Source: Ginglymostoma cirratum | Taxonomy: Eukaryota | Direction of reading: 5' to 3' | Length of the DNA stretch: 64,000 nt | Assembly: GCA_024137785.1 (NCBI GenBank) | Contig: JAHRHZ010000092.1 | Span: forward strand, 625,770 to 689,769 | Part shown: positions 1,669 through 64,000 of the stretch, in pieces | How the letters are laid out: each line of letters opens with the position of its first letter | Position numbering within the stretch: position 1 is the stretch's first letter | Program-made: the position numbers and the translations under genes | The notes under the pieces: generated by a model | Seen by the model: only the letters and a program-made list of their open reading frames with translations | The model's database searches: none | What the model was told of the DNA's origin: nothing

Positions 1669-2315
1669 TGTTGTAAAAATTTTTATTTTTACTTAACTAA
1701 TAATGAGACTTGACTCCAGCTCTCGTTCTAAGCAGTTTATTTTCTTACTTGGTACCAGGGAGAGTGAGTGTCGATCTCCACCGGCACCCGACTCTACTAG
1801 TACAGAGTATAACAATCTCGTTCATACCATTAACTTCAGAGCAGGGTGTTGCCGTGACATCTTGTGTTTGTTGATTCATTTCATTGTAAGTTTAAAGAAA
1901 ACAGACGCTGCTCGAGGTAACAGGAATTCTGTCTTACAGATACCTTAATAATTACTTCTTCAAATGACCTTCGGCATGAAGCTAGCATAGGGAGTGATAC
2001 ACAGTTTGATTGAAACTCTAGCTTATCAGTATCTAGGCTCCACGGGGATACAAGGGACATTTCTAATTTAGCCTAAAACCTTGGTATAGTGACGATATAT
2101 CAAAAGATCCTTCTCTAACTCTAGCTAAGATAACATGTACATAGTGTTAACACAGTCTGAGTAACTACCTCCCGACTTCTGCTAAGCTCGGTAAAATCCC
2201 ACATGCTAAACTAATTAAAATTCTTTCTCTAAGTCATCAGTTTCTCCCATGGTTGCCTTTTCTGTCTTGGCCTAAATTCCCGTCTACCCTTGCAATGTAA
2301 AATTTTTCTTCCACA
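1669..2315 (-). mobile_element. Solo LTR (647 bp)
   Basis: TG...CA termini flanked by a perfect 5-bp TTAAG duplication (1664-1668 and 2316-2320). AATAAA on the minus strand at 1736-1741. The surrounding CR1 sequence resumes across it. Confidence 0.75.
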
Positions 2316-2473
2316 TTAAGGAAGTTATATTGGGATATCTAAAAATTAAAGATATGATCAGGTGGAGTCAATGAACTTGAACGTTTTGTGAAAGAGAAAT
2401 CTTTTTTAACTAATTTAATAGTCTTTTTCACTAGGAACAAGCAAAATGTAAAAAGACGATCCCGTTGATACGG

Positions 2474-2572
2474 TGAGATAACAAGGTGTGGAGCTGGATG
2501 AACACAGCAGGCCAAGCAGCATCATAGGAGCAGGAAAGCTTGACGTTTCGGGCCTAGACCCTTCATCAGAAA
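2474..2572 (-). mobile_element. Penelope-like terminal fragment with minimal hammerhead ribozyme motif
   Basis: Minus strand 2542-2569 reads CTGATGA-A-GGGTC-TA-GGCCC-GAAA-C-GTC. An imperfect flanking duplication ATCCC(G)TTGATA(C/T)GGTG is present. Confidence 0.7.
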
Positions 2573-4559
2573 TCCCTTGATATGGTGTCTGGGGTTTCAA
2601 AAGTACAGTTAGTAAGGTTCCATATCAAGGGCTATTACATACTATAAGAGCACATGCTATATGGAATAACATCTTAGCACGCATGCAAGATTGTTTGGCT
2701 TGGTGTTTTTGTGTTGCCACGCTGTAACTTGTACAGCACCACAGGATCAGTTTTAGTATATGAACTATTTACTATCTGTGTCAATGACTTGGATGAAGAG
2801 GTAGTTAAATTTTTCAATGATACAATGGTAAAAAGGAAATCAGATTGCCAAAATGAGATGAACACATAATGAAAATGGACAGTATGACAAATTAAGTATA
2901 ATATTGGCGCATATTAAACTGCCCTTATTCACAGGAATAAAAAAAATGTACACTCGACGAGGAGAAAATGCAGAATGGAACAGTGAAGAGAGATTTCAGT
3001 GTCCTGGTGCAATGAATCAAAAAGTGTCACTTGCAGGTATAGCAAGTGATTAGGAAGAGAAGAGGTAAGTTGGAATTTCTTACAATCAGGTTGGAACAGA
3101 AAAACAGAGAAATTTTATTTCAACTGCGCAGAATTTTGATGAGACCGCACCCGAAATATTGCGTATAGTTTTGGTCTCCTTATACTAAAAATATTATTGC
3201 CTTGGAAACTGACATAGAAGATTCAGGCGAATATTCCTGTGTTGAAACTGATATTTTACGAAGGTTGAATAGGTTGGATCTACACTCGTTAGAGCTTAGA
3301 AGAATGAGACCTGATCTTGTTAAAATAAAAAGCTATTCAGGCAAATAATTAGGATGGACACAAGAAAGACAGATGAGGAGTTTTCTTTTCTTCGAAAAAG
3401 TTGATAATTCGTAGAATTTTCTTTTCAGGAAAACAGTGGTGAATGAATGAATTAGATTAACTAACTAACTAACATTAATTCAAAGGATAATTTTGATACG
3501 GAAGGTAACTAAGCCTTACGCAAGGAGAGACAGACGGGAAGCCGATCTTATGCCATATGATCTTCTTGATTGGAAAGTGAATCCAAAAGACCCATTTCAA
3601 TCTGTGTTTCCGGGTTAACCTCTCTTCAAGAACGAGGTAAATGAAGTTGGTGTCGGTATTAATTGCTCCCCTGCCTCGGAGATGCTGTCCCTGGCCAGTT
3701 ACTAAGGGCGCATGAGGTAGATAAAGCTCTGAATCTGTAATGCTTGTTGTACTGAAGGAGGGACGGCGCCGAGGTAAAAATACCCTCAAACATGTGAATA
3801 TGTTCGTGATAATCTTAAGAAAATCTTGAATTAAGCTGGGGCAGCATTCTCGATGAGTTTTGAGGAAGGGTCACTAAACCTGAAACTTTAACTTTTCTCT
3901 CCGCAGATGCTGCCAGACCTGCTGAGCCTTTCCAGCAATTTCTGTTTTTGTTCTAACATTCTCTCCGCATGAGCAGACTAGTTTTGGCTCCGAGTTTTCC
4001 CCTTGAAAGCTTCTTGACCGCTTTTTGGGTGACTTTAGCAAATGATTGATTTGATGTCATAGTCATAACCACCACCTCAATCATTTCATTTAAATTCAAT
4101 AAATTCAAGTCATTGTGAACAGCTCTGTCACAGGAAGATCAAATCTTAATCTCTAACAAGGGAATGTTCCATTTCGTGTCCTCGAACTCCACGAAGGTGG
4201 TGTACTGTCTTAGGAATGGGGTGGAATGTGGGTAAGGCAGGAAGTGTACATATGCCTGCTAATTCCGACTTTGTATCTGATATGTCATCAGCTAGGGAAT
4301 AGCTCCAAAGGTGGTCTTGAGATCTATTCCCTCACACATCGAGAAAAAATCGACTGAATTCCTCATCTAACATTGATGCTATCACTAATCCCACGTAGGT
4401 CAAAACAATAAATATTTACAGATGCCTTTGTAGGGGTTTGCATCATAATGCCAATTTTCATCTCGCTGGTGGCGCTGTTGCTGCTGAGTTCAACGCTGTT
4501 GGTGCCGACAGCTTCCCTTGACTGTTGAGATCACAATCTTGATTGATATTCAGGCCAGT

Positions 4560-4930
4560 CCCTCAGTAGTGTGACACCCAATACTTAAAACGGGTCACCA
4601 AAGATCACCAAATTTCCTCAGACAGCACCTTCCAAACCCACGCCCATTTCCGTCTAGAAGGACAAGGGCAGCAGATATATGGGAACACCACCATGTCCAA
4701 GTTCCTTTCCAAGTCACTCACCATCCTGACTTGGAAATATACCGTTCCTTCACTGTAGCTGGTCAAAATCCTGGAATTACCTCCCTAATAGCTTTGTGGG
4801 TCAACCCACAGCAGGGAGAATGCAGCGGTTCAAGAAGGCAGCTCACCACCACCTTCTCAAGGGCAACGAGGGATAGGCAATAAACACTGGCCCAGCCAGC
4901 GACGCCTACATACCACGACATGAATAGAAA
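4560..4930 (+). mobile_element. 3' end of a non-LTR retrotransposon
   Basis: CAGCACCTTCCAAACCC...AGAAGGACAAGGGCAGCAG...TTCAAGAAGGCAGCTCACCACCACCTTCTCAAGGGCAA...AATAAA followed by an A-rich tail. Related fragments occur elsewhere, e.g. about 52220-52310. Confidence 0.6.
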
Positions 4931-6489
4931 AAAGAACTGATAGATTAATAGGGGACTTCTAGAAAGTGTGCTGAGGCAGTATGTTACCCAGAACTAATAC
5001 CAAAACAAAAAAAAACAGTATAGTGGTTATTTATTTATTGCGGTTAGTGGGAGCTTGCACTACTGAAATTGGTCACCCGGCATATCAATCACTATACTTT
5101 GACGAACTCACACGGTGGTAAAGATATTTGGTGCTTTCTGAAGTCAGCAGTGATACTTTCGTGATGTAATTTGTAGTTTCTCCAAACATTTTCTCTGTTT
5201 CAATCTATAATTGACTAAAATGTGAATCTAACGGACGTACAATTTGACGGGAATACTCGCCTCTTCCGTGGCGCAGACACCTCCTCAGCTGTCGATGACA
5301 CCAGGGAACTCAGGCACATCCAGAAACACGCCGGTGTTGGCCTAAATATTGGCCATGCCATTACGTTACGGTATGACAAGAACCAAATCGGCCGTTAGGA
5401 ATATTGTTTCCAATTACACCTCCGAGACTTTTAAAACAGTCTGAACCACCAGCACGCTGTTTGATCTGGAAGTGAGAGATGCCCCTTTGTCTCACACTGA
5501 TGTGTACTTCTGTGCTCATTGTATCACATAATATTCGAAGCTCATTTTCTTTCGCCTTGGATGGATACAGGACGTTCAGAGTTGATTCTGTCCGTATGAA
5601 TGTACCAATGTTTCCAAACATGTTCACATTGTCTTAAACTCTGCCCTTTCCCCATAACTCAAGGTTTCAATTCGTGAATCTTTCTATTTCCCTTATCCTT
5701 GAATCTGTTTACTGCAACCACTGTGATCCTGCGTTCCAAAACGAGCAACTCGTAGCATTGAAAAGTAATTCATCATACTCCAGTGATTCCGTGACTAAAC
5801 ATCTTAACATACTAACAGCATTTTTAATGATTTTCAACGTCTCCATTACATCTGCCCGTAACATTATGTGCTGCCACGAGAAAAAAATGCCGGCTTCTCC
5901 AATCGCTCCACTTGAATGAAATTCCTCATCTCTGGTTACTGTACTAATCAACCTGCTCTCTACTTTTTCTTAGGATTTGTCATCTTTCCCAAAGCTTAGT
6001 TCCCACAACGCAACGCAACAATTCTGCTGCCGAAAATGGTAATTTCTAATGGCTCGGCGCAACTCTCCCGTTTTAATCTCTATTTCGTTTTGTATAAAAC
6101 CAAGGTTGCGTTTTTTAAAAAAAAGTCTCACCTTGTACTCACATCTGCAAAAACGTCAGTACATAGAAGGACAAAGGCAAAATACTAATGGAAACATCGC
6201 CAATCTGCTTTTCCAGTTACACGCTATCTATCCTGGAACTATGTCCGAGTTCCTAATGTCATTGCGTCACGAATACTGTAGCAGGAACGATGGGCGGAAA
6301 GGCCTAGTTCAGCTCTTATTTTCTATGTCAATACTTAACAGGTGTGGACGTTGCTGAGATGATCATAGAAGACACTTAGGGCATTCCCTTTAATGTCATT
6401 TTTAGCATATTTTATTGCAACAATATGCCATTAACAGCATATGACATATGACATGGATTTTATATGCTTATTTAAAACAGCACAAAAAA

Positions 6490-9400
6490 TAACAATACAG
6501 AAGAGGAACAGGCTCTTCAGCCCTCCAAGACTGTGCCGCCACTTTCTGCCCTTCCGTACTAAAACTGTCTTTTCACTTACAGGACCCGTATCCCTCTATT
6601 CCCTTCCTATTGTACTCGTCCAAGTACTTCTTAAATGATGTTACTGCGTGTGCTTCCACCACCTCCTCTGGTAACGCGTTCCAAGCACTCACCACCCTTT
6701 GTGTGAAAAACTTGCCCCGCACATCTCTTTTAAACTTTCTCCCCCCTCCCCGCCCCCAAACACCGCGCCCACCCCCCCCCCCCCCCCACCCCCACCACCT
6801 TGAACATCTGTTCCCAGTAATTGACCTCTCCACCTGAGAAAAAAAGCCTCATACTTGCCAGGCTATCCACGCCATTCACAATCTTATAAACTTCAGTTAG
6901 GTCGCCCCTCAACCTCCGGCATTCCAGAGAAAACAAACCCAGTCTATCCAATCTTTCTTCATAGCTAAAATCCCATATACCAGGCAACAACTTGGTAAAC
7001 CTTTTCCGTACCCTTTCCAAATCACCCACATCCTCTGGTAGTATGATAACCAGAACTGTATGCAATAATCCCAGAGTGGCTTAACTAAAGTTCTATAAAC
7101 CTGCAGCGTAACTTGTCTATCCTTGTACTCAACGCCCCTTCCAATGAAAGCACGCATGCCGTAAAGCCGTTTGTACTACCTTATCTATTTGGGCTGCCGC
7201 ATTCAGTGGCCTATGGACCTGCACATCCAGAACCCTTTGCATTCAATACTCCTAAGGGTTCTGACATTCACTGCATAATTTCCACCTGTACTTGACTTTC
7301 CAAAATAGTTCGCCTCACATTTGTCCGGATTAAACTCCATCTGCCATTTTCTGTCTATGCCTCCAACTGATATGTATCCTGCTCTTTCCTCTGACAATTC
7401 TCTTCACTATCCGCCAATCTTTGTGATAGCAGAAACTACAGATGCTGGTCAGAGTTCACCAATCTTTGCATCGTCTGCAAACTTACTAATTTGATCAGCT
7501 ACGTTTTCCTTCAAATCACTTATGTAGACCACGAGCAGCAGAGGTCCCAGCACTGATCGCTATGGAACACCTTTAGTCACACCCCTCCATTCTGAAAAGC
7601 ATCCTTCCACAGCTACTCCTTGCCTCCTATAACTAAGCCAGTTTTGTATCCATCTTTAGAGCAGGAAAGCTTGACGTTTCCGGCCTAGACCCTTCATCAG
7701 AAATGGGGGAGGGGAAGTGGGTTCTGAAATAAATAGGGAGAGAGGGGGAGGCGGATAGAAGATGGATAGAGGAGAGGAGGCAGACAAGTCAAAGAGGCGG
7801 GCATGAAGCCAGTAAAGGTGAGTGTAGGTGGGGGGGGGTGTAGGGAGGAGATAGGTCAGTACAGGGAGGACGGACAGGTCAAGGGGGCGGGATGAGGTTA
7901 GTAGATAGGAGATGGGGGTGGGGCTTGAGGTGGGAGGAGTGGATAGGTGAGAGGAAGAACAGGTTAGGGAGGTCAGTTCGCAACAAACAACTGCACCTCC
8001 CAGTCGCGAACCATTTTAACTCCCCCTCCCATTCCTCAGACGACATGTCCATCCTGGGCCTCCTGCAATGCCACAGTGATGCCACCCGAAGGCTACAGGA
8101 ACAGCAAATCATATTCAGCCTGGGAACCCTGCAGCCCAATGGTATCAATGTGGATTTCACAAGCTTCAAAATCTCCCCTCCCCCAACCGCATCCCAGAAC
8201 CAGCCCAGCTCGTCCCCGCCTCCCTGACCTGTTCTTCCTCTCACCTATCCCCTCCTCCCACCTCAAGCCCCACCCCCACCGCCCCGCCACCCACCACCCC
8301 ACGCCCCCTTGACCTGTCCGTCCTCCTGGAACGACCCTTCCCCCCCCCTTCCCCCCCCCCACCTACACTCACCTTTACTGGCTCCATCCCCGCCTCTTTG
8401 ACTTGTCTGCCTCGTCTCCACCTATCCTCTCCTCTATCCATCTTCTATCCGCCTTCCCCTCTCTCCCTATTTATTTCAGAACCCTCTTCCCCTCCCCCAC
8501 TTCTGATGAAGGGTCTAGGCCCGAAAAATCAAGCTTACCTGCTCCTATGATGCTGCTTGGCCTGCTGTGTTCATCCAGCTCCACACCTTGTTATCTCGGA
8601 TTCTCCAGCATCTGCAGTACCTATTATCTTTGTATCCATCTTGTCAGCTTACCTCGATACCATGTGACTTCACCTTTTGTACCAGTCCTGCCATAAGGGA
8701 CCTTTTCAAAGGCTTTACTGACCTTCATGTAGACAGCATCAACCATTTTTCCCTCATCAATCATCTTTGTCACCTCCTCAAAAAAACTCTATCAATTTAG
8801 TGAGGCAGGACATCCTTCGCACAAAACCACGCTGTCCATCGCTAATAATTCCATTTGCTTCTAAATGCGTACAGATCTTGTCCCTGAGGATCTTTTGCCA
8901 TCATTTCCTTGCAACCGACTTGCGTCTCACAGGTCTGTCATTTCCAGGATCATCCCTGCTACCCTTCTTAAACATTGGGACAACATTGACTATTCTCCAG
9001 TCCTTTGGAACCTCGCCTGTGGCCAAATAAGCTGCAAAGATGTCTATCAATGCTAAGGCAATATGTTCTCTTGCCTCCCTCAATATTCTGGGATAGATCC
9101 CACCTGAACCCGGGGACTTATCTGCCTTAATACGTTTTCAGATAGTCAACACCTCTTCCTTTTTAACGGTAACTTGGCTTAGAAACTCGACTCTTCCTTC
9201 CCTGAAATCATCCTCCACCAGTTCTTTCTCTTCTGAGGACACTAACACAGTATTCATTTAGGACCTCTTCTGGTTCCACATATAGCTTCCCTTCTTTGTC
9301 CTTGAGTGGGCCAACCCTTTCCCTGGCTACCCTCTTGCTTTTTATATATGCATGAAAAGCTTTAGGATTCTCTTTAATCCTATTTGCTAGTGACTTTTCA

Positions 9401-9695
9401 TGACCCCTTTAACCCTTCTCATTGCTTGCTTAAGTTCTTTCCTACTTCCTTTGCATACTTCAAGGGCTTCGTCAGTTCCCATCCTCATAGACTCTATGTA
9501 AGCTTCCTTTTTCTTTCTGACTCAAGGTTATAACACCCCTGGCTATCCAAGGTTCACGTAATTTGCCATACCTATCCTTCATTCTCGCTCCTGAGCTCTT
9601 ATCAACTGCCATTTGAAATACTCCCACAAGTCTGATGTAGATCTACCCACAGCCAGCCGCCTGCAATCAAAATTCTCCAGTTCCTGCCTAATATT
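6490..9695 (-). mobile_element. CR1-type LINE, 5'-truncated, fragmented ORF2
   Basis: Translated fragments FFTQRVVSAWNALPEEVV, RLGLFSLECRRLRGDL, WQMEFNPDKCE, VPKDWRIVNVVPMFKKG. Interrupted by the Penelope-like insertion and a C-rich tract at 6741-6800. Confidence 0.9.
7657..8628 (+). mobile_element. Penelope-like element (GIY-YIG endonuclease C-terminal relic) with inverted terminal duplication
   Basis: ORF fragment HLPVANHFNSPSHS...RRLQEQQIIFSLGTLQPNGINVDF. About 7659-7970 is the reverse complement of about 8225-8545. A 14-bp target-site duplication TTTGTATCCATCTT lies at 7643-7656 and 8629-8642. Confidence 0.85.
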
Positions 9696-9704
9696 GTTGT
9701 GATC

Positions 9705-9995
9705 ATAGAATCCTTAAATGTGGAAACAGGCCATCTGGCCCAAAAAGTCCACACCATCGCTCCAAAGAGCACCCCACCCAGACCCAATACTCCTGCATTT
9801 CCTTGTCTAACCCAAACATCCCTGGGCAATTTAGCATTGCCAATCCAGCTAGCCTGCGCATCTTTGGGAGGAAACCCACACAGACAGAGGGAGAATATGC
9901 AAACTCCATACAGACAGTCGCTGGAGCCTGGAATCGAACCCAAGTCCCTAGCGCTGTGAGGGAGCAGCACTAACCGCTGAGCCATCGTGCCGCCC
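9705..9995 (-). mobile_element. tRNA-derived V-SINE (HE1-like)
   Basis: The reverse complement begins GGCGGCACGATGGCTCAGCGGTTAGTGCTGCT...GGGTTCGATTCC and shares the core of the 573-895 copy. Confidence 0.85.
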
Positions 9996-10239
9996 GAAAG
10001 GCGCCTTCCCCCCATTTAGCACCTGCATCCGAAGACTGCTGTTATCCCGAACAATGAGTACCTTAAAAATCAGGGCATTATGGTCACTACTCCCGAAATG
10101 CATATATTACCACATCTTTTGTGGTAATTCTGGCATCTATTTTTCTCTTCTCTGTGTTAGCTGGATGGAGAAAATGAGGTAGGCACAAGAACAATTGGAA
10201 GACGTTGCAAACAACATGCTGAGTAAAATGATCAACTAT

Positions 10240-11160
10240 CCCGTTGTTGAGGCTGCCTACGGAAACTACATTACTTGGTATGAAATTTGAGACAATGTGC
10301 ATTAGATGACTCCGCTTTAGTGGGGAAGTTATTAACCACCTCTATGACATCTTGCAGGATGGCCAGAGCTAAGCTCAAAACGCCACACCACTTATCAGTG
10401 GCAATGAATATAAACGCGGCCTCCAATTTTGAGTCATAGAGATCATTACAGTCAAGCTCATGCGAACCAACTCACACAGAGCTTTGAGGGCTCCTATTCA
10501 CCAGGTATCTGTCATTATCTACCAAAGATTACAATGTCACTAATTTGAGTATGTCCTCAGAACACATGTGCAAGCGCCCACCATATTCGATATGAATGTC
10601 AGTTTCCCTAATTTATTTAGGTCTTTGGTTGGACAACATATTCATTTGAAGGTACCAAACCATGAGTTCGTTTCACACAACAAGAAAAAAAGGCCTCCAC
10701 TTGCAGATGCAATGACTGTTTTCGATGAGCAGATGTAGATCCTCGGTGTAACTCTCTGTCCTCCTCTGTTCAGGTTGCCAGGGAAGTCCTTACCACCCCT
10801 TCGTCCTCAGGAACTCAGTATTGCAGCAAACAATGAGTGCTTCGCATTGAAGTTCAGGACGGTTACTGGGTGACAAGGGTACTCACTGAAAATGTGGTTT
10901 ACAGCACAGTGCCACAGGACTAGCCACCCAGTGCAAGAATAATGCAATTATTCACATTGCTCGACACATCTCATGTCTCAAAACGTCACATAATGCAAAA
11001 GGACATCTGCCTGTTGAAATACTTTTCTCGTATCTAAAAATTCAGGGTACAGTTTGATGAGCTCTCCTAATGAGGCGTTGAAACCTGCATTGGAATATTG
11101 TGTGTTTTACTGATTTGCCCTCCAGGAAGGACTCGATCTCCACCCGATGATGTCAAGATG
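10240..11160 (+). pseudogene. PIF/Harbinger-type (HARBI1-like) transposase relic
   Basis: From about 10858: G-R-L-L-G-D-K-G/(frameshift)Y-S-L-K-M-W-F...QE*CNYSHCST...LLK. This matches the Harbinger LLGDxGYPxxxWL...E.YN..H..TR...FG.LK block. Multiple stops and frameshifts. Confidence 0.55.
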
Positions 11161-11544
11161 CTAGAAGTGAACCAGGTGGAGCTGGTCCATCTACAGCCTG
11201 TAGCGTGTCTTGATGCAGACGTGACTCCTGGAATGTATAGCAAAGTCAAAGATTCACTAAAGACTGGTAAATATGTTCAGCTTCTAGACAACTGGTAAGA
11301 AATGTCAGATGGCTGGTTCTGAACCTATTCATTTCGAGATTCCTGTCATGTGTTTCTTAAGCTTCAAACAACACTACATTAGTAGATGGTAATATCGCAG
11401 CACGTAAACTTAATTCTGACTAAATTGCAAAGATTTCATTCCCGATTAATGGAAAATGGGCAAGAATTGTGTGAAAAGGTGGCGAATGGAAAATAAAGGA
11501 TGTAAGAAGAGAAAAACGAAAGGAGCGAACACGGACTAGGACGG

Positions 11545-11640
11545 ATTTGCAAAATAAAGTACGTCAGCGGCATTAGTTCCGGCAGCCGGTTCAGTCACGT
11601 GATTAGCCCGGCAACTGTCAATCACTGCTCACCAATCTGG
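11545..11640 (+). promoter_or_regulatory. Putative promoter of inverted V gene 1
   Basis: Within about 170 bp of the ATG: octamer-like ATTTGCAA (11545-11552), CRE half-site TACGTCA (11560-11566), E-box CACGTG (11596-11601), CCAAT (11632-11636). Motif match only. Confidence 0.45.
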
Positions 11641-11717
11641 TGGCTTTTCTATTACGATCCTTTGTAAACACTGTCTTATCGATCAGTAACGCTGGCTATC
11701 AGTTCCTGAGAAGGGCG

Positions 11718-11781
11718 ATGGCAGTGTCAGTTCAAGCGATCACGGTCTGTCTCACCCTTTCGCTCGGACAATGGATTCAAT
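11718..11781 (+). CDS. TRBV: Leader exon of inverted V gene 1
   Basis: MAVSVQAITVCLTLSLGQWIQ is a hydrophobic signal peptide. A phase-1 donor T|GTAAGT at 11782 splices in frame to 12079. Confidence 0.85.
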
Positions 11782-12078
11782 GTAAGTATTAGAGGCCGAA
11801 CTCACCTCTCGCAACAGCGAAATAGGAAATATCTTAATTATACCCAGTTGGGAGGATAATCAATACTACGTTTCAAAATAAATGGAATTGAATCAGTGCT
11901 GAGAGAGGAAACCAAGTGTTAATACGTAAGAGCGGAAAGGTAAATAAAACTAATCAGATCGCTCTCGGAAACCGCCGCCGCAGGAAAGATGGGCCGAATT
12001 ATCGCTCTGTCAATTGAAAAACTTCTTCCGAATGGTTGTCTTTACCTATAACTTTACCCTTCTCGAAATATATTCCAG

Positions 12079-12375
12079 GGATTCGGGCTGCGCCGACTGT
12101 AGTCCAGTCTGCAACAAGGGCCGCTATTCCACACGGAGAGCCTTTCACTTTGACCTGCAGTTTGGAGGGAGAGAGCATGGGCAGCTATACTATGCACTGG
12201 TACCGCCAACAGGGGACAACAATAGAGTGGCTGTGCAATGAATATAAAAACTGTGCATCGGGTTTAGACGACAGGTTCGAAGTGCAACACGTCTCTTCGA
12301 ATAACCGATTTACCCTGAAGCTGAGCAACACCCAGTTGGCAGACTCTGCGACCTACTACTGTGCAGCTAGTATGG
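12079..12375 (+). CDS. TRBV: V exon of inverted TCR V gene 1 (open frame)
   Basis: Acceptor TTCCAG| then (W)IRA-APTVVQS...LTCSLEGESMGSYTMHWYRQ...DSATYYCAAS, with the canonical Cys, Trp and DxAxYYC, followed by an RSS. TRBV is assigned from locus context, not sequence similarity. Confidence 0.9.
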
Positions 12376-12414
12376 CACAGAAACACAACCCGCTTATAGA
12401 CTAATACAAAAACC
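12376..12414 (+). other. 23-bp-spacer recombination signal sequence of V gene 1
   Basis: CACAGAA (12376-12382) + 23 nt + ACAAAAACC (12406-12414, perfect nonamer). Confidence 0.92.
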
Positions 12415-12944
12415 TTCCTGCTATCCCAGCACGTACCTAGCTCCACCTGTAACCAGTGCGGTCTAGGGAGTTCAGTAAACCCAAGAGAATGTTGATATTC
12501 GTACGGTTATATGCGAGATCCGAACATTACAATACACGTTGCAGCCAAACAAGGAGTTATTGCAGCACAAACAGAGGCCATTCCACCTATCTAGTCCGTG
12601 AAAGCTCTCTGTGGAGCAATCGTTCTATTCCTCGTTCTATGCATGAAGCTCCACAGACTCACTATGCATTAAGTTTCACGTTGTTATGACTCTCAGAGTG
12701 AAACCGTTCATCCCCGAATTCGGTCCGCATCTCTCAGGCAAAACTTTACATCAATATTCCATCATCTCTTCATCACGAGCTAATGGGAATAGTTTTTCTC
12801 AGTCATCCTTCTTTAAACCTGTTCTAACATTGTCCCTTATTTAAACCTGTCCTAACTTCGTCCACCTCTATCAAGCTTCCGCACGATCACTTTGCTCTAG
12901 GAACAAACCCAGATTTTTATGTTGCCTGATTTTCGGAATCATTT

Positions 12945-13020
12945 TGTGTTTGAATTTGTCTGATGCAGTTTTGTACCACTGTGCCGTATTTGCAGAGCAG
13001 AACTAGTCGCAGAGTCTGTC
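12945..13020 (-). pseudogene. Orphan V 3'-end fragment with 23-RSS, opposite in orientation to the two V genes
   Basis: Minus strand: ACA GAC TCT GCG AC- TAG TTC TGC TCT GCA AAT ACG G, then CACAGTG (12977-12983), a 23-nt spacer GTACAAAACTGCATCAGACAAAT, and TCAAACACA. Clearly homologous to the V2 end and spacer (GTACAAAACTGCAACAGACAGAT). Confidence 0.85.
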
Positions 13021-13603
13021 CTTTGCGCCTACTGATGATCCCTCTTATGTTTCCTAATGCGTGCTGACCAGAATTGGGCGAGTCTCCTCGTTGTGGCTGG
13101 AATAACTTTACAAAAGTTCAGGATTACTTCCCTTTTTTGAGCTCAGCACCTCTATATAAAATCATAAGTTCCAATCCGTAATTTTTCGCCGCCACGCCTT
13201 AGACGTTTAGGTAAAACCACAGGAAACACGGCAGGCAACATTTCTAGATCACTCCCACAAAATACCAATAGAACATGCAAATAATGTTTTCTTTGCAGAT
13301 CTCAGTTGAGAGCTAGACTTTGCTAAAACAGCATTCACAGCCAGGTTTGTTCTTCTGACTTCAGAGGTGGGTTTTTGTATAGTTCGGGATAGTGCAAAAT
13401 CCAATAGCAACAAATGAAATACTGCTCACTTGTTTGAGATATTGATCTGGCTATGTTCCAGTACACGATTGGTTGGTCCATCTTCAGGCGGAGTTTGTTC
13501 TCAACTCATGCATTTCCGCTCAGTGGGACATCTTGTCTTGATAACACTCATCTTAGTAACACATAGTCGTTCATCAGCTTTGGGTTGCTTCATGAGAAAA
13601 ACA

Positions 13604-13670
13604 ATGGGTGCCACATCTGGAATACGCTTATTCATCTTTCTCTCTTTATTATTCGTACGGTGGATCTACG
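13604..13670 (+). CDS. TRBV: Leader exon of inverted V gene 2
   Basis: MGATSGIRLFIFLSLLFVRWIY, with an in-frame alternative ATG at 13592. Phase-1 donor G|GTAAGT at 13671. Confidence 0.85.
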
Positions 13671-13949
13671 GTAAGTGTTGAACAGCGGAAAACTGTTTTG
13701 CAAACTGTAAAAACTGGAGAAAAAAGTCTATATACAAACTGAAGGTGATTCAGTCATAACTTTAAAGAGAATATTGGATAAATAATTGAAAGAGAAAATT
13801 GTAGAGCTGAATGAAAGATAGGGTACTGGGACTAAATAGATAGTTCTTTTAACTAGTTGACAGCTTCATGATGGGCACAATGATAGACTTTTATGCTAGA
13901 TTATTCTATTATTCGAACTCATTTATCTTTGTTTTTTTTTTCAATTTAG

Positions 13950-14246
13950 GAGTGAAGTCTGCACCTAAAGTGGCCCAGTTTCCTCCCGCGGCTGCGATTT
14001 CACTGGAACAGTCTCTCACTCTTGGCTGCAGTTTGGAGGGAGGGAGCATGAGCACCTACACCATGTTTTGGTATCGGCAAAAGGAACGCCTTTTCGAGTG
14101 GATATGCAGTGGGTATGGTGGCTGTGGAACCGATTTTGAGAAACGATTTACCGTTCAGCTCGAAGCTGGAAGCAATAAATTCAGCCTGCAGCTGAACAAC
14201 TCCGAAGAGACAGACTCTGCGACCTATTTTTGCGCTGCGAGTAAGG
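13950..14246 (+). CDS. TRBV: V exon of inverted TCR V gene 2 (open frame)
   Basis: Polypyrimidine tract + TTTAG| then (G)VKS-APKVAQF...LGCSLEGGSMSTYTMFWYRQ...DSATYFCAAS. Aligns to V1 without gaps (46/94 identical residues by manual count). Confidence 0.9.
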
Positions 14247-14285
14247 CACGCCGGTACAAAACTGCAACAGACAGATACAAAAACG
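14247..14285 (+). other. 23-bp-spacer recombination signal sequence of V gene 2
   Basis: CACGCCG (14247-14253; CAC intact, the rest divergent) + 23 nt + ACAAAAACG (14277-14285). Confidence 0.85.
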
Positions 14286-14570
14286 TTCTTAGAGCATACC
14301 CCAAAGCGCATTTATAAGCTTCTGTGGCAATTCTCTGCCATCAGTATTCTGGCATTTCTGTGATACTTTGCAGACTATGGGACATTCTAAAAAGCCCTTC
14401 CATCCATTGAATCGTCTCTTTTGATGTTCGTCACTGTTTTAATCTCGGAGATAAGGCAGAAAAATACACGACAAGCTCCCAAGCATAACAAACAAGGGTC
14501 AGAACATCGCATTCATATTACATGAGGGACAAAAAATTCTCTAGTTATACACACTGACAACAACGTAAAA

Positions 14571-22549: not shown

Positions 22550-23090
22550 GTGATAACAAGCATGGGGCTGGATGAACACAGCAGGTCAAGCGGCATCATA
22601 GGAGCCGGANNNNNNNNNNNNNNNNNNNNNNNNNNNNNNNNNNNNNNNNNNNNNNNNNNNNNNNNNNNNNNNNNNNNNNNNNNNNNNNNNNNNNNNNNNN
22701 NNNNNNNNNNNNNNNNNNNNNNNNNNNNNNNNNNNNNNNNNNNNNNNNNNNNNNNNNNNNNNNNNNNNNNNNNNNNNNNNNNNNNNNNNNNNNNNNNNNN
22801 NNNNNNNNNNNNNNNNNNNNNNNNNNNNNNNNNNNNNNNNNNNNNNNNNNNNNNNNNNNNNNNNNNNNNNNNNNNNNNNNNNNNNNNNNNNNNNNNNNNN
22901 NNNNNNNNNNNNNNNNNNNNNNNNNNNNNNNNNNNNNNNNNNNNNNNNNNNNNNNNNNNNNNNNNNNNNNNNNNNNNNNNNNNNNNNNNNNNNNNNNNNN
23001 NNNNNNNNNTGCTTGACCTGCTGTGTTCATCCAGCCCCATGCTTGTTATCTCGGATTCTCCAGCATCTGCAGTACCTTTTATCTCTGATA
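22550..23090. other. 400-N assembly gap (22610-23009) flanked by inverted Penelope-type repeats
   Basis: GATAACAAGCATGGGGCTGGATGAACACAGCAGGTCAAGC lies left of the gap and its exact reverse complement lies right of it. Confidence 0.9.
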
Positions 23091-52633: not shown

Positions 52634-52740
52634 CTTAGTTTTCCAAGCAAGAAATGACACAAACAATGCATACAAGATGCTTTTGCAGAACAGGATCAAA
52701 TACGTCAATTTTGCTGCTCCCATGCTTTGTAATTTTTCTT
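52634..52740 (-). CDS. TRBC: TCR beta constant exon 3 (connecting peptide + transmembrane)
   Basis: TTCACAG|...|GTAAGA, 107 nt, encoding EEKLQSMGAAKLTYLILFCKSILYALFVSFLAWKTK. It has the TCR-beta TM pattern Y-x5-K-x3-Y with an intramembrane Lys. Confidence 0.95.
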
Positions 52741-54219: not shown

Positions 54220-54561
54220 CAATGCTGATGGTTACATTTGCACTGTGTATCTGTTCCTTTTTAGAAGTATAATGATTCACTTTGCACTCAATAGTTTGAG
54301 GCTCAACCAAATCAATGGCTTGCAATCTTAACCGACTGCTGATGCTGTAGGACTTATTCCCATCCACTGGCTTGGAATTGAGATCAGTCAGAATCTTTAC
54401 ATCATTGTCCAGCTGAGGCCTGTTATTAATGATCCAGGTGATCTTGATATTGTCTGGGTAGAAGTTAGATATTAGGCAAACCACAGTTGCCTTCCTCTTC
54501 TCATTAATCTCTTCTGGAGAGGGCAGAAACATAGTGATGGTAGGATCCTTAACAGCGCCTT
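54220..54561 (-). CDS. TRBC: TCR beta constant exon 1 (Ig C1 domain)
   Basis: CACAG|(E)GAVKDPTITMFLPSPEEINEKRKATVVCLISNFYPDNIKITW...SYSISSRLRL...IECKVNHY...SI G|GTAGGT. The PS.EEI..K.KAT.VCL...FYPD and SSRLR motifs are TRBC hallmarks. Confidence 0.95.
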
Positions 54562-61140: not shown

Positions 61141-62188
61141 CACAGTGCTACAGGATGATGTTAAAACGGTCAACTATTTAAAATACTGTCTTCAGAAAAG
61201 ATTCTCAAATGACAGACTTACATCCTATTAAACTTTAATTTAAAGATGGTCAGAAAATACATTACACCACATTTTGCATTTCATATAAGGTATTGAATTT
61301 CAATAAATAAGTGATGCTCCACAGCAGTCTTGACAGCCAACATTTAACAACCATACACTTACGCGTATGAAAATCTTAAAGAGTTAGTCAAACTAAATGG
61401 ATAGTGTGGTGCGGAAATTTAGGGGCTATTTTCCAGTATTGAGTATCTTAGCAGTTGAGAACATAGCCTCAAATGGTGGAGAACTCAAAATTGAGTAAAC
61501 TCAGCCTGAAGAGACAAAGAGGTGGGAATGGGGGGAATGAGGGAGATTGCAGAATTGGATTGTAGTTCAACTTCAAGAATTCTGGAGGAACATCATAACA
61601 TAGAGTTGAGGAAATACAAAATCTTCTACAGCAGGGAATGCCTGAGATGAAAAACTTAGCACTTAAAATAAAGCAGATAAAGAGAGGACATAGGAATAGA
61701 AGGGTAGGTTGATAAAGTGAGATAATAAAAAAAAATTATCAGAAGGATGTGCATCTCGAGGATTGTGTTCAGTTTGGTATGACATGTTTCACCAATTTCT
61801 GGACATGAATAATCCACAAGATCTATAATCCATCTTTGGGGAAGTGAGCAAACATCTTGAAACTTTCTTTTTAACAATGTTCTTAATGTCCCCAAAATAA
61901 TGGACTCCAGCATTCAACAGGGCAGATCGCCACCAACTTCTCAAGGACACGTAGCTCTGGGTGATAAATGTTAGCTTTTCCAGAGGTCCTTGCAACAGGC
62001 AAACAATCAAAAATGTTCTTTCCATTATTCATATTGAAGTCACACATTAATATTTTCAATGAATTTTAAAATGGATATTGCCCACCAGAAATATTTGTCT
62101 TAGAAAAGTTGCAGAATGCTGAACTTCCAATCCCTTTATGTATTTGAAAAACAAAAATCATAGTCACATTTTTTAACTTTCAACTCAC

Positions 62189-62241
62189 CCAGAATGGTCA
62201 GTTTAGACCCTTCACCAAAGAAATAATCATAGCTTCCAGAG
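62189..62241 (-). CDS. TRBJ: TCR beta J segment, intact coding sequence but RSS split by a LINE
   Basis: SGSYDYFFGEGSKLTIL + G|GTGAGT. Heptamer CACAGTG at 62242-62248, with no nonamer at +12 because CR1 sequence starts at about 62257. Confidence 0.9.
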
Positions 62242-62256
62242 CACAGTGTTTCATTC

Positions 62257-62870
62257 ATTTTTAGCTTTCATTAATAGCGGGATTGAGTTCAAGAGCCGTG
62301 AAGTTATGCCCCAGCTATACAAAAGCCTGGTTCGGCCACATCTGGAGTCTTGTGTCCAGTTCTGGTCACCTCATTACAGGAAAGATGTGGAAACATTGGA
62401 AAAGGTGCAGAGGAGATTTACCAGGATGTTGCCTGGAATGGCGGGAAGGTCTTACGAGGAAAGGTTGAGGGAGCTAGGGCTTTTCTCTTTAGAAAGATGA
62501 AGGATGAGAGGTGACTTGATAGAGGTGTACAAAATGATCAGAGGTATAGATAGAGTAGACAGCCAGAGACTTTTTCCTAGGGTGGAGGTAGCTTTTACAA
62601 AGGGACATAGTTTTAAAGTGAAAGGAGGTAGATATCGGGGAGACATCAGAGGTAGATTCTTTACTCAGAGAGTGGTAGGGGCATGGAATGCATTGCCGGA
62701 GAGGATAGTGGAGTTGGCCTCATTAGGGGCATTTAAGCGGCTATTAGATAGGCATGTGGATGATAGTATAAGGTAGCGGTGGAGGTTAGATAGACCTTAG
62801 GTTTCGGTTAAAAGTTTGGCACAACATCGTGGGCCGAAGGGCTGTACTGTGCTGTACTGTTCTATGTCCT
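62257..62870 (+). mobile_element. Young CR1-type LINE 3' fragment inside a J RSS spacer
   Basis: LYKSLVRPHLESCVQFWSPHYRKD...FFTQRVVGAWNALP, tail CTGTTCTATGTCCT, and ATTC on both sides (62253-62256, 62871-62874). Confidence 0.92.
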
Positions 62871-63171
62871 ATTCCGGTTACAAAACTGTTCCAGCTTCCA
62901 AAGAATTGGGGAATTTTGGATTCGTAATAAAATTAGCCTTTTGATATCTCTCAGAATCCATATGGCAGGAAAAAAAGCTTTCTTTAAAATAGCTTTCCTT
63001 TTATACAATTCTACGATCAATGTTGACCCGTGTCTGTCTTTCAGGTCTGATCCATGTCCTAAATGCACTGAATGCAAAAGGTATTTCAGCAAAGAAATTA
63101 ACATCTTGACCCTCTTTCTTAGCAATTTTAACAGCACATTTTCCGAGTTAACCCAACATTTCTAGGGTCAC

Positions 63172-63221: not shown

Positions 63222-64000
63222 CACAGTGTGAGACCCTTTTCAGAAAACATCACAAGACAAAGTGTTTTTTTAAACCAGTCTTGCAATTGGCCACTGTTGA
63301 CTTGGATGATTGTTTATTTCATCTCATTAATTTTAATCCAATGCCACATTAAAAAGGTAATAATTATAAAGCAGAAAAGGAGACCTATAAGTCAATAAAA
63401 CTTCTAAAGACACAATCAACTAATTTCACTCACCTCTCTTCTTTCTGCATAGCCTTGTAAATATTTTTCAATAAATCATTTTTATATCCAGTTTCCATTA
63501 AGCAAGCTTCCACCACAACACATTCCATATCAATTCAATGTCCTCCATGAGAAATGACTCTGCTAGGTCTTTTACCAATTAGCGCAAAATCAGTATCATT
63601 GGTCACCGGCCATTCTGCCACAGTAAGCTTTCTGATTGTTTACGCAAGATCTTAATTAGTTTTGAAAATGTTGATTAAACCCCCAGTTGTCCCTTACTGA
63701 TCTGTAGAGAATTATAGCAAATTTCAGGTCCACACAGTTGTCTCATGTCTGGTACCATTTTAGTAAATCATTACTGTTCCATATCCAAGGCTTGAAAAAC
63801 AATCTAATGCATTTTGTTCAAAAGTGAACACATTTCATCAGCTGTGACCCAACCACTGATTCCTAAAAGTTGATCAAAATTTATTTTCTTAACTCATCTT
63901 AAATCCTCAATGAGTGACTTTCTGCACCCTCAATTCTTCCTTCCAAATATTTTGAGTATTTACTAACATCATTGTCCCTCCATCCCAGTCCCACGTTCTC

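Follow-up and report, generated by a model that had tools for sequence, protein, structure and literature searches.

IMGT places J pseudogenes of antigen receptors whose recombination signal (RSS) is defective in its ‘ORF’ or pseudogene class. RAG nicks DNA at the edge of the RSS heptamer. Spacers of 12 ± 1 or 23 ± 1 bp are given for RSSs in passages of PMC2193808, which also describe cryptic signals that have a heptamer, lack a clear nonamer and can nevertheless recombine. The named CR1/L2-group LINE family of sharks and rays is HER1, the partner of the HE1 SINE (passages of PMC3747384), and zebrafish L2-type LINEs make short target duplications (about 5 bp) and acquire extra 5′ bases templated from flanking DNA (passages of PMC4760211).

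Here, we describe a TRB J segment of Ginglymostoma cirratum, J62219, whose RSS is interrupted by a LINE. J62219 resembles the RSS-defective J pseudogenes in that an open coding region and a splice donor are combined with an apparently unusable RSS, with functional J segments around it, but its defect consists of 618 bp inserted into the spacer and not of a point change or small deletion. No published case of a spacer insertion in a J RSS was found in the literature searched, which is weak evidence of rarity. The insert shares with 5′-truncated CR1/L2-group LINEs the 3′ end of a reverse transcriptase (RT) ORF, a 3′ UTR, a microsatellite tail in place of poly-A, a likely short target duplication, extra 5′ bases and thousands of related copies, and shows no structural difference from such insertions. 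From sequence comparison, we consider it probable that this is an old, fixed LINE insertion that pseudogenised one redundant J segment.

An Interrupted J Segment in a TCR-Beta Cluster

The stretch of DNA that was analysed (64,000 nucleotides, G000:C92:625770–689769; hereafter, the window) includes, on its minus strand, the 3′ half of a TCR-beta D-J-C cluster. Its constant gene is represented by an open TRB-type constant Ig exon (54220–54561, minus strand) and an open transmembrane exon (52634–52740, minus strand). Three J segments, named here after the positions of their Phe codons (61123, 62219 and 63202), lie in the window, and beyond it there are four more in-line J segments (64916, 67269, 68559 and 69202) and a D segment with a 5′ 12-RSS at C92:695474. 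The downstream neighbour of the interrupted segment, J61123 (61093–61140, minus strand), has an open frame and a GT donor. The upstream neighbour, J63202 (63172–63221, minus strand), is a pseudogene in which a stop replaces the first Gly of the FGxG motif; its RSS (63222–63249) is uninterrupted. J64916 (L046, about 3956–4010) has a GC donor and a poor heptamer and nonamer, and neither the GT donor nor the second Gly is left in the orthologue of J61123 in a related species (organism B, see below). Judging from these segments, C-proximal J segments of the window cluster are generally decaying in both lineages. An inverted J-like segment with a GT donor and no recognisable RSS, PAPIHFGAGTKLTVL, was also seen on the plus strand between two in-line J segments (L046:7363–7416; G000:C92:694085, window coordinate 68316).

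J62219 itself occupies positions 62189–62241 of the minus strand, has an open frame and reads SGSYDYFFGEGSKLTIL. It carries an FGxG motif, a GTGAGT splice donor (62183–62188, minus strand) and, on its 5′ side, the consensus 12-RSS heptamer CACAGTG (62242–62248, plus strand), and, as a TRB J segment should be, it is flanked on one side by a D segment that has 12/23 signals and on the other by a TCR-beta constant gene. The heptamer is followed on the plus strand by the first eight spacer bases (62249–62256), which end in the left copy of a 4-nt ATTC repeat (62253–62256), the likely target-site duplication. The right ATTC copy lies at 62871–62874, half of it (the first two bases) overlapping the LINE tail. 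Next to it are four bases (62875–62878) that, by the junction models described below, would be the last of a 12-bp spacer, and then the putative displaced nonamer, TACAAAACT (62879–62887, plus strand). The two ATTC copies are separated by 614 bp, and the insert has shifted the nonamer 618 bp further from the heptamer. The flank of J62219 has no second copy in the 4.36-Gb genome (one match only). An earlier note on this DNA, made from the letters alone, had laid out the J segment, heptamer, spacer, both ATTC copies and nonamer in this way and had called the coding region and donor intact; each of these elements was found in its place.

The Insert Is a 5′-Truncated LINE

Homology to the LINE family begins at 62261 in 26 of the 29 nearest family copies and stops at 62872 in 23 of them, which places the CR1-like, 5′-truncated element at 62261–62872 (plus strand, antisense to J62219). 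Since LINE homology begins only at 62261, the four bases ATTT at the 5′ junction (62257–62260, plus strand) are extra bases that do not belong to the element; they are unlike the LINE family and form a near-copy of the adjacent ATTC. What the insert retains of ORF2 is the C-terminal end, interrupted by an in-frame stop (62498–62500) and closed by the normal stop (62774–62776); a 3′ UTR and a two-unit microsatellite tail (62860–62872) are also present. By itself the insert gave no Pfam match; in a longer copy, L025, an ORF that shares the sequence of the insert extends 5′ into an RVT_1 domain (E = 6e-34). A first look at the genome retrieved 6072 candidate relatives, 40 of which were scored; all 40, the insert itself included, matched at 94–100% identity, and family copies reach further 5′ (up to 1357 bases ungapped). 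An RT-encoding dispersed family, together with 5′ truncation and an intact 3′ end with its tail, identifies the insert as a LINE. The claim that a LINE had landed inside the 12-RSS spacer of a TRB J segment was thus borne out by the boundaries drawn from the 29 copies and by the RT domain of L025. We tentatively take the element to be a CR1 from its ORF2 C-terminal motifs, and any link to HER1 is presumed on the same ground.

Three of the 29 related copies (L017, L023 and L028) are truncated at most two bases from the truncation point of the window copy. Truncation may favour this site, or these copies may form a short sub-family, and the query’s own start could bias the observation.

Reconstruction of the Recombination Signal

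A strict consensus RSS search returned no hits in the 64-kb window, and a local nonamer matrix was therefore built from the signals of 18 other J and two D segments in the three TRB clusters of the genome. The matrix is somewhat circular, the training signals having been picked partly by nonamer likeness; left out of it, the 20 other signals score from −6.3 to 8.8. On this scale, the displaced nonamer scores 3.1, a value that 2.2% of window 9-mers equal or exceed. Its register is weakly fixed: because of an A-run, neighbouring registers are nearly as good, with starts one and two bases earlier standing at 3.0% and 3.6% of 9-mers.

Excision of the insert together with one ATTC would leave a 12-bp spacer and a nonamer that scores like the genome’s other signals. 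Among the junction models tried, the one with the longest direct repeat (4 nt) is also the one that yields the 12-bp spacer; an alternative model with a 3-nt repeat gives a spacer of 16 bp. The arrangement in which the longest repeat gives both a 12-bp spacer and a well-scoring nonamer appears to be more than chance. Both the 12-bp ancestral spacer and the 4-bp duplication are reconstructions from the filled allele alone, and it is in this sense, with the empty allele unseen, that the restoration of heptamer, 12 nt and nonamer proposed in the earlier note stands.

In the present allele, the bases between the heptamer and the element (62249–62260) likewise number precisely 12, which puts the nonamer position in LINE sequence. 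At this position, the filled allele scores −7.3, which is below all 20 other 12-RSS nonamers, and matches two of the nine consensus letters. The scores are −7.6 at 11 bp and −10.6 at 13 bp, and remain between −7.3 and −10.6 when 23 bp is considered as well. A nonamer at 12 ± 1 bp from the heptamer, by which a functional 12-RSS is recognised, is therefore absent from the present allele. Since a nonamer 618 bp away breaks the 12/23 rule, J62219 should be disabled, in line with the inactivation that had been suggested before, and the insertion likely abolished its recombination. J62219 could have been little used before the insertion.

Age of the Insertion

Compared with the majority sequence of its 29 nearest relatives, the window copy has 20 differences in 612 sites (3.3%, CI 2.0–5.0), the 29 being best hits and thus a biased sample. 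Their own mean distance to the majority is 2.9%, and that between any two of them is 5.3%. CpG sites hold 8 of the 21 differing columns of the window copy, and six of its substitutions or gaps are absent from all 29 copies. The closest other copy is 95% identical (the best among the 40 scored of 6072 candidates). With the mutation rate of 7e-10 per base per generation given for the epaulette shark in passages of PMC10587355, the insertion would be 1.4e7 to 4.7e7 generations old, a rough order of magnitude taken from another species; the six private differences alone would correspond to about 1.4e7 generations. In a simulation, 65% and 60% of such J segments stayed intact at 3.3% and 4% neutral change, so that the intact state of J62219, being expected under neutral decay, is no sign of recency. 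We conclude that the insertion is likely old. The description of it as recent does not agree with its distance from the family majority and from its nearest copy, with the in-frame stop, or with the probable sharing with a related species described below.

Distribution of the Insertion

Seven of 24 listed sequencing runs were compared (X1, X2, X4, X11, X19, X21 and X22). X1, X2 and X4 are contigs from three studies of Ginglymostoma cirratum, and one of the samples could be the reference animal; contigs lose rare variants, and a rare empty allele could escape. At least 31 letters on each side were required for a junction to be called bridged. Contigs of X1 span the 5′ junction (L046 907–1378) and the 3′ junction (1912–4578), and a contig of X4 spans the 3′ junction (L046 1912–2246), all with 0 differences. 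An X2 contig agrees at 22 of 22 letters beyond the 5′ junction (through L046 1348), where 4 of 22 would be expected from an empty site. Among 15 of the 19 joints, none skips the insert. The reference genome and the contigs of X1, X2 and X4 are all filled, the empty allele being seen nowhere in this small sample, and empty and filled alleles were therefore not found together in one species. An assembly artefact was ruled out, independent contigs bridging both junctions.

Organism B (X11), a related species, is 7–8% diverged in the flank. One of its contigs (depth 5) aligns without gaps to L046 864–1347 with 39 differences in 484 positions, and the next contig has 61 in 834. The first of these contigs runs, in the part seen, 21 letters past the junction, which is under the 31-letter bridging rule; the next base, where it has already ended, is a position that sets the window copy apart from its family. 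Its 39 differences in 484 fit the 61 in 834 (p 0.67); an empty site would mean 22 differences in 463 (p 0.08), and the count by itself does not exclude it. Because a contig from an empty site would be clipped near L046 1326–1331, we read organism B as filled, and this single contig makes it likely that the species carries the insert. The dates agree: each lineage has changed by about 4% since the two species separated, against 3.3% for the window copy. In organism C (X19), there was no orthologous contig at 80% identity, only repeat matches. The possibility that the insertion is polymorphic, raised in the earlier note together with a search for the empty allele in other haplotypes and relatives, is not supported: contigs of all three studies have filled junctions, and the joints listed include none that skips the insert. 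One related species is probably filled, and another yielded no orthologous contig. If sharing with organism B is confirmed, the insertion would be a presence/absence marker for that shark lineage.

Expression and Use of the J Segment

The end of an X1 contig at the J67269 donor carries the first letters of the window C exon, and an X1 contig spanning from the D segment to the J69202 donor has 27 further letters; the window cluster is transcribed and spliced in X1. X1 has no spliced or rearranged contig on J62219, and neither has it one on the uninterrupted J61123 (three contigs aligned, none in part). Since contigs show presence and not absence, those of X1 are silent on the cause of the missing J62219. 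RNA reads of X21 (about 24 of 100 sampled) gave almost no depth outside repeats, and X22 gave 0 reads. None of 20 longer and three near-length protein matches is an expressed chain with the window C exon, and J62219 is absent from the 14 of the 20 longer matches that were inspected.

Origin and Consequences of the Insertion

Repeats make up 40 intervals and 21,347 bases, about a third of the window, by a minimal self-comparison. The chance that a repeat hits a given 12-bp spacer would be 0.8% per J segment, 13% over 19 J segments and 78% over an assumed 200 Ig and TCR segments, figures compatible with the remark, made previously, that insertion next to a RAG site may be chance. RAG-guided insertion was considered and rejected: chance suffices, and the cut lies 4–8 bp inside the spacer, off the heptamer edge.

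We propose that the copy arrived long ago by ordinary retrotransposition, likely at a time when this species and organism B had not yet separated. Target-primed reverse transcription at a 4-bp staggered cut would have generated the ATTC duplication; the LINE tail shares two bases with the target, and the extra bases would have arisen during 5′ end joining. Because the nonamer has moved off by 618 bp and nothing replaces it at 11, 12, 13 or 23 bp, RAG could not use the signal efficiently, and by the 12/23 rule D-to-J joining should skip J62219. The loss would have been tolerated thanks to the other J segments and two more D-J-C clusters, and would have drifted to fixation. Since there are at least 18 other J-like segments in the three clusters, the effect of the insertion on the repertoire is probably small. 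If the preferred reading holds, the case matters little: long ago, an ordinary retrotransposon put a single segment out of use in a set of at least 19 TRB J-like segments.

The clean junctions and the intact J62219, heptamer and donor would also be seen if the insertion were recent, still segregating and altering the TRB repertoire between individuals, and the few individuals available were viewed via contigs that lose rare variants. We regard such a recent origin as extremely unlikely, since the copy lies 3.3% away from the majority of its family and none of the 40 scored copies exceeds 95% identity to it, its six private differences amount to about 1.4e7 generations at the rate given in passages of PMC10587355, and junctions are filled in three studies and probably in organism B; an intact J segment is in any case expected with a frequency of 60–65% at 3.3–4% neutral change. 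Another reading makes the LINE a passenger in a J segment that was already dead or hardly used, in one version with an original spacer of 16 bp, as the 3-nt repeat model yields. J63202 with its stop and J64916 with its GC donor and poor signal decayed with no insertion at all, and the J61123 of organism B lacks the donor and Gly. Prior death of J62219 is nevertheless unlikely: the longest repeat yields exactly 12 bp, the heptamer is consensus, the frame and donor are intact, and the displaced nonamer shares its final AAAACT, register included, with that of the C150 J segment at 813375.

The persistence of a consensus heptamer, an open frame and a donor, in a D-J region that is transcribed and spliced to the window C exon in X1, might instead mean that J62219 is still used at a low level from its lone heptamer, independently of a nonamer, and that this use preserves it; a heptamer without a clear nonamer is common among cryptic signals (passages of PMC2193808). 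However, the persistence of the J segment is expected neutrally, and the bases at the nonamer position match only two of the nine consensus letters. Such residual use strikes us as very improbable, and we give equally little credit to recombination from a lone heptamer that preserved J62219 in two species over tens of millions of generations. If this were true, nature would have provided, fixed in the germline, a test of V(D)J recombination without a nonamer, and in the most ancient group that has RAG-based immunity. Under the preferred reading of an old, fixed and disabling insertion, it is a clean natural RSS knockout, which could reveal residual in vivo activity of a heptamer-only signal.

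Other TRB Clusters and Neighbouring V Segments

At least 19 J-like segments are distributed over three TRB D-J-C clusters in the genome, the two clusters other than the window’s having at least six and at least five J segments (40 kb scanned at each). The three TRB C exons are located at window positions 54220–54561, at G000:C92:839941–840225 and at G000:C150:825513–825797; the other two are 51–56% identical to the window’s, with J segments upstream of each and D segments at two. Among named sequences, the window C exon is closest to TCR-beta chains of sharks or to gene models of this form. Nurse shark TCR-beta cDNAs P0013–P0015 and P0017 represent the same chain type as the window (D core, 12-RSS J and C exon), but the window C exon is about 50% identical to theirs, compared with 65% to Chiloscyllium P0001. 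Because of this identity of about 50%, the window cluster is separate from the cluster of the cDNAs. Only the C150 C exon matches the nurse shark cDNAs retrieved, and it is identical at 115 of 115 positions to the product P0015, which points to the nurse shark or a very close relative as the source of the genome; the two other C exons find closer relatives among gene models of the whale shark (P0002, 73%) and of the bamboo shark (P0001, 65%). The split of the three C exons looks old, as judged from these identities.

No description of shark TRB J clusters or of three C exons was found in the literature searched, outside of which subscription journals lie. Passages of PMC5931798 and PMC13433984 hold no germline TRB J map. 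Three J motifs occur in none of 11 of the 19 supplements of PMC10322711, the other eight of which might hold shark TRB tables; the table named in passages of that paper concerns TRA of another species. Three divergent TRB clusters, one of them losing its C-proximal J segments, are probably more interesting to comparative immunologists than the insertion.

Several V segments with a 23-RSS are located downstream of the window C gene in inverted orientation (L012–L015, G000:C92:585771–625770, and window 5250–14317); four of them end in a YYCAWS-type motif and at least one has a stop. In mammals, an inverted TRBV30 stands behind TRBC, an arrangement that these shark V segments recall. A run of 400 N is present at window positions of about 22610–23010. 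Two unusual V segments (window 12018–12404 and 13853–14317, both on the plus strand) have an extra cysteine pair after WYRQ, and their sequence matches in the PDB are generic antibody V domains.
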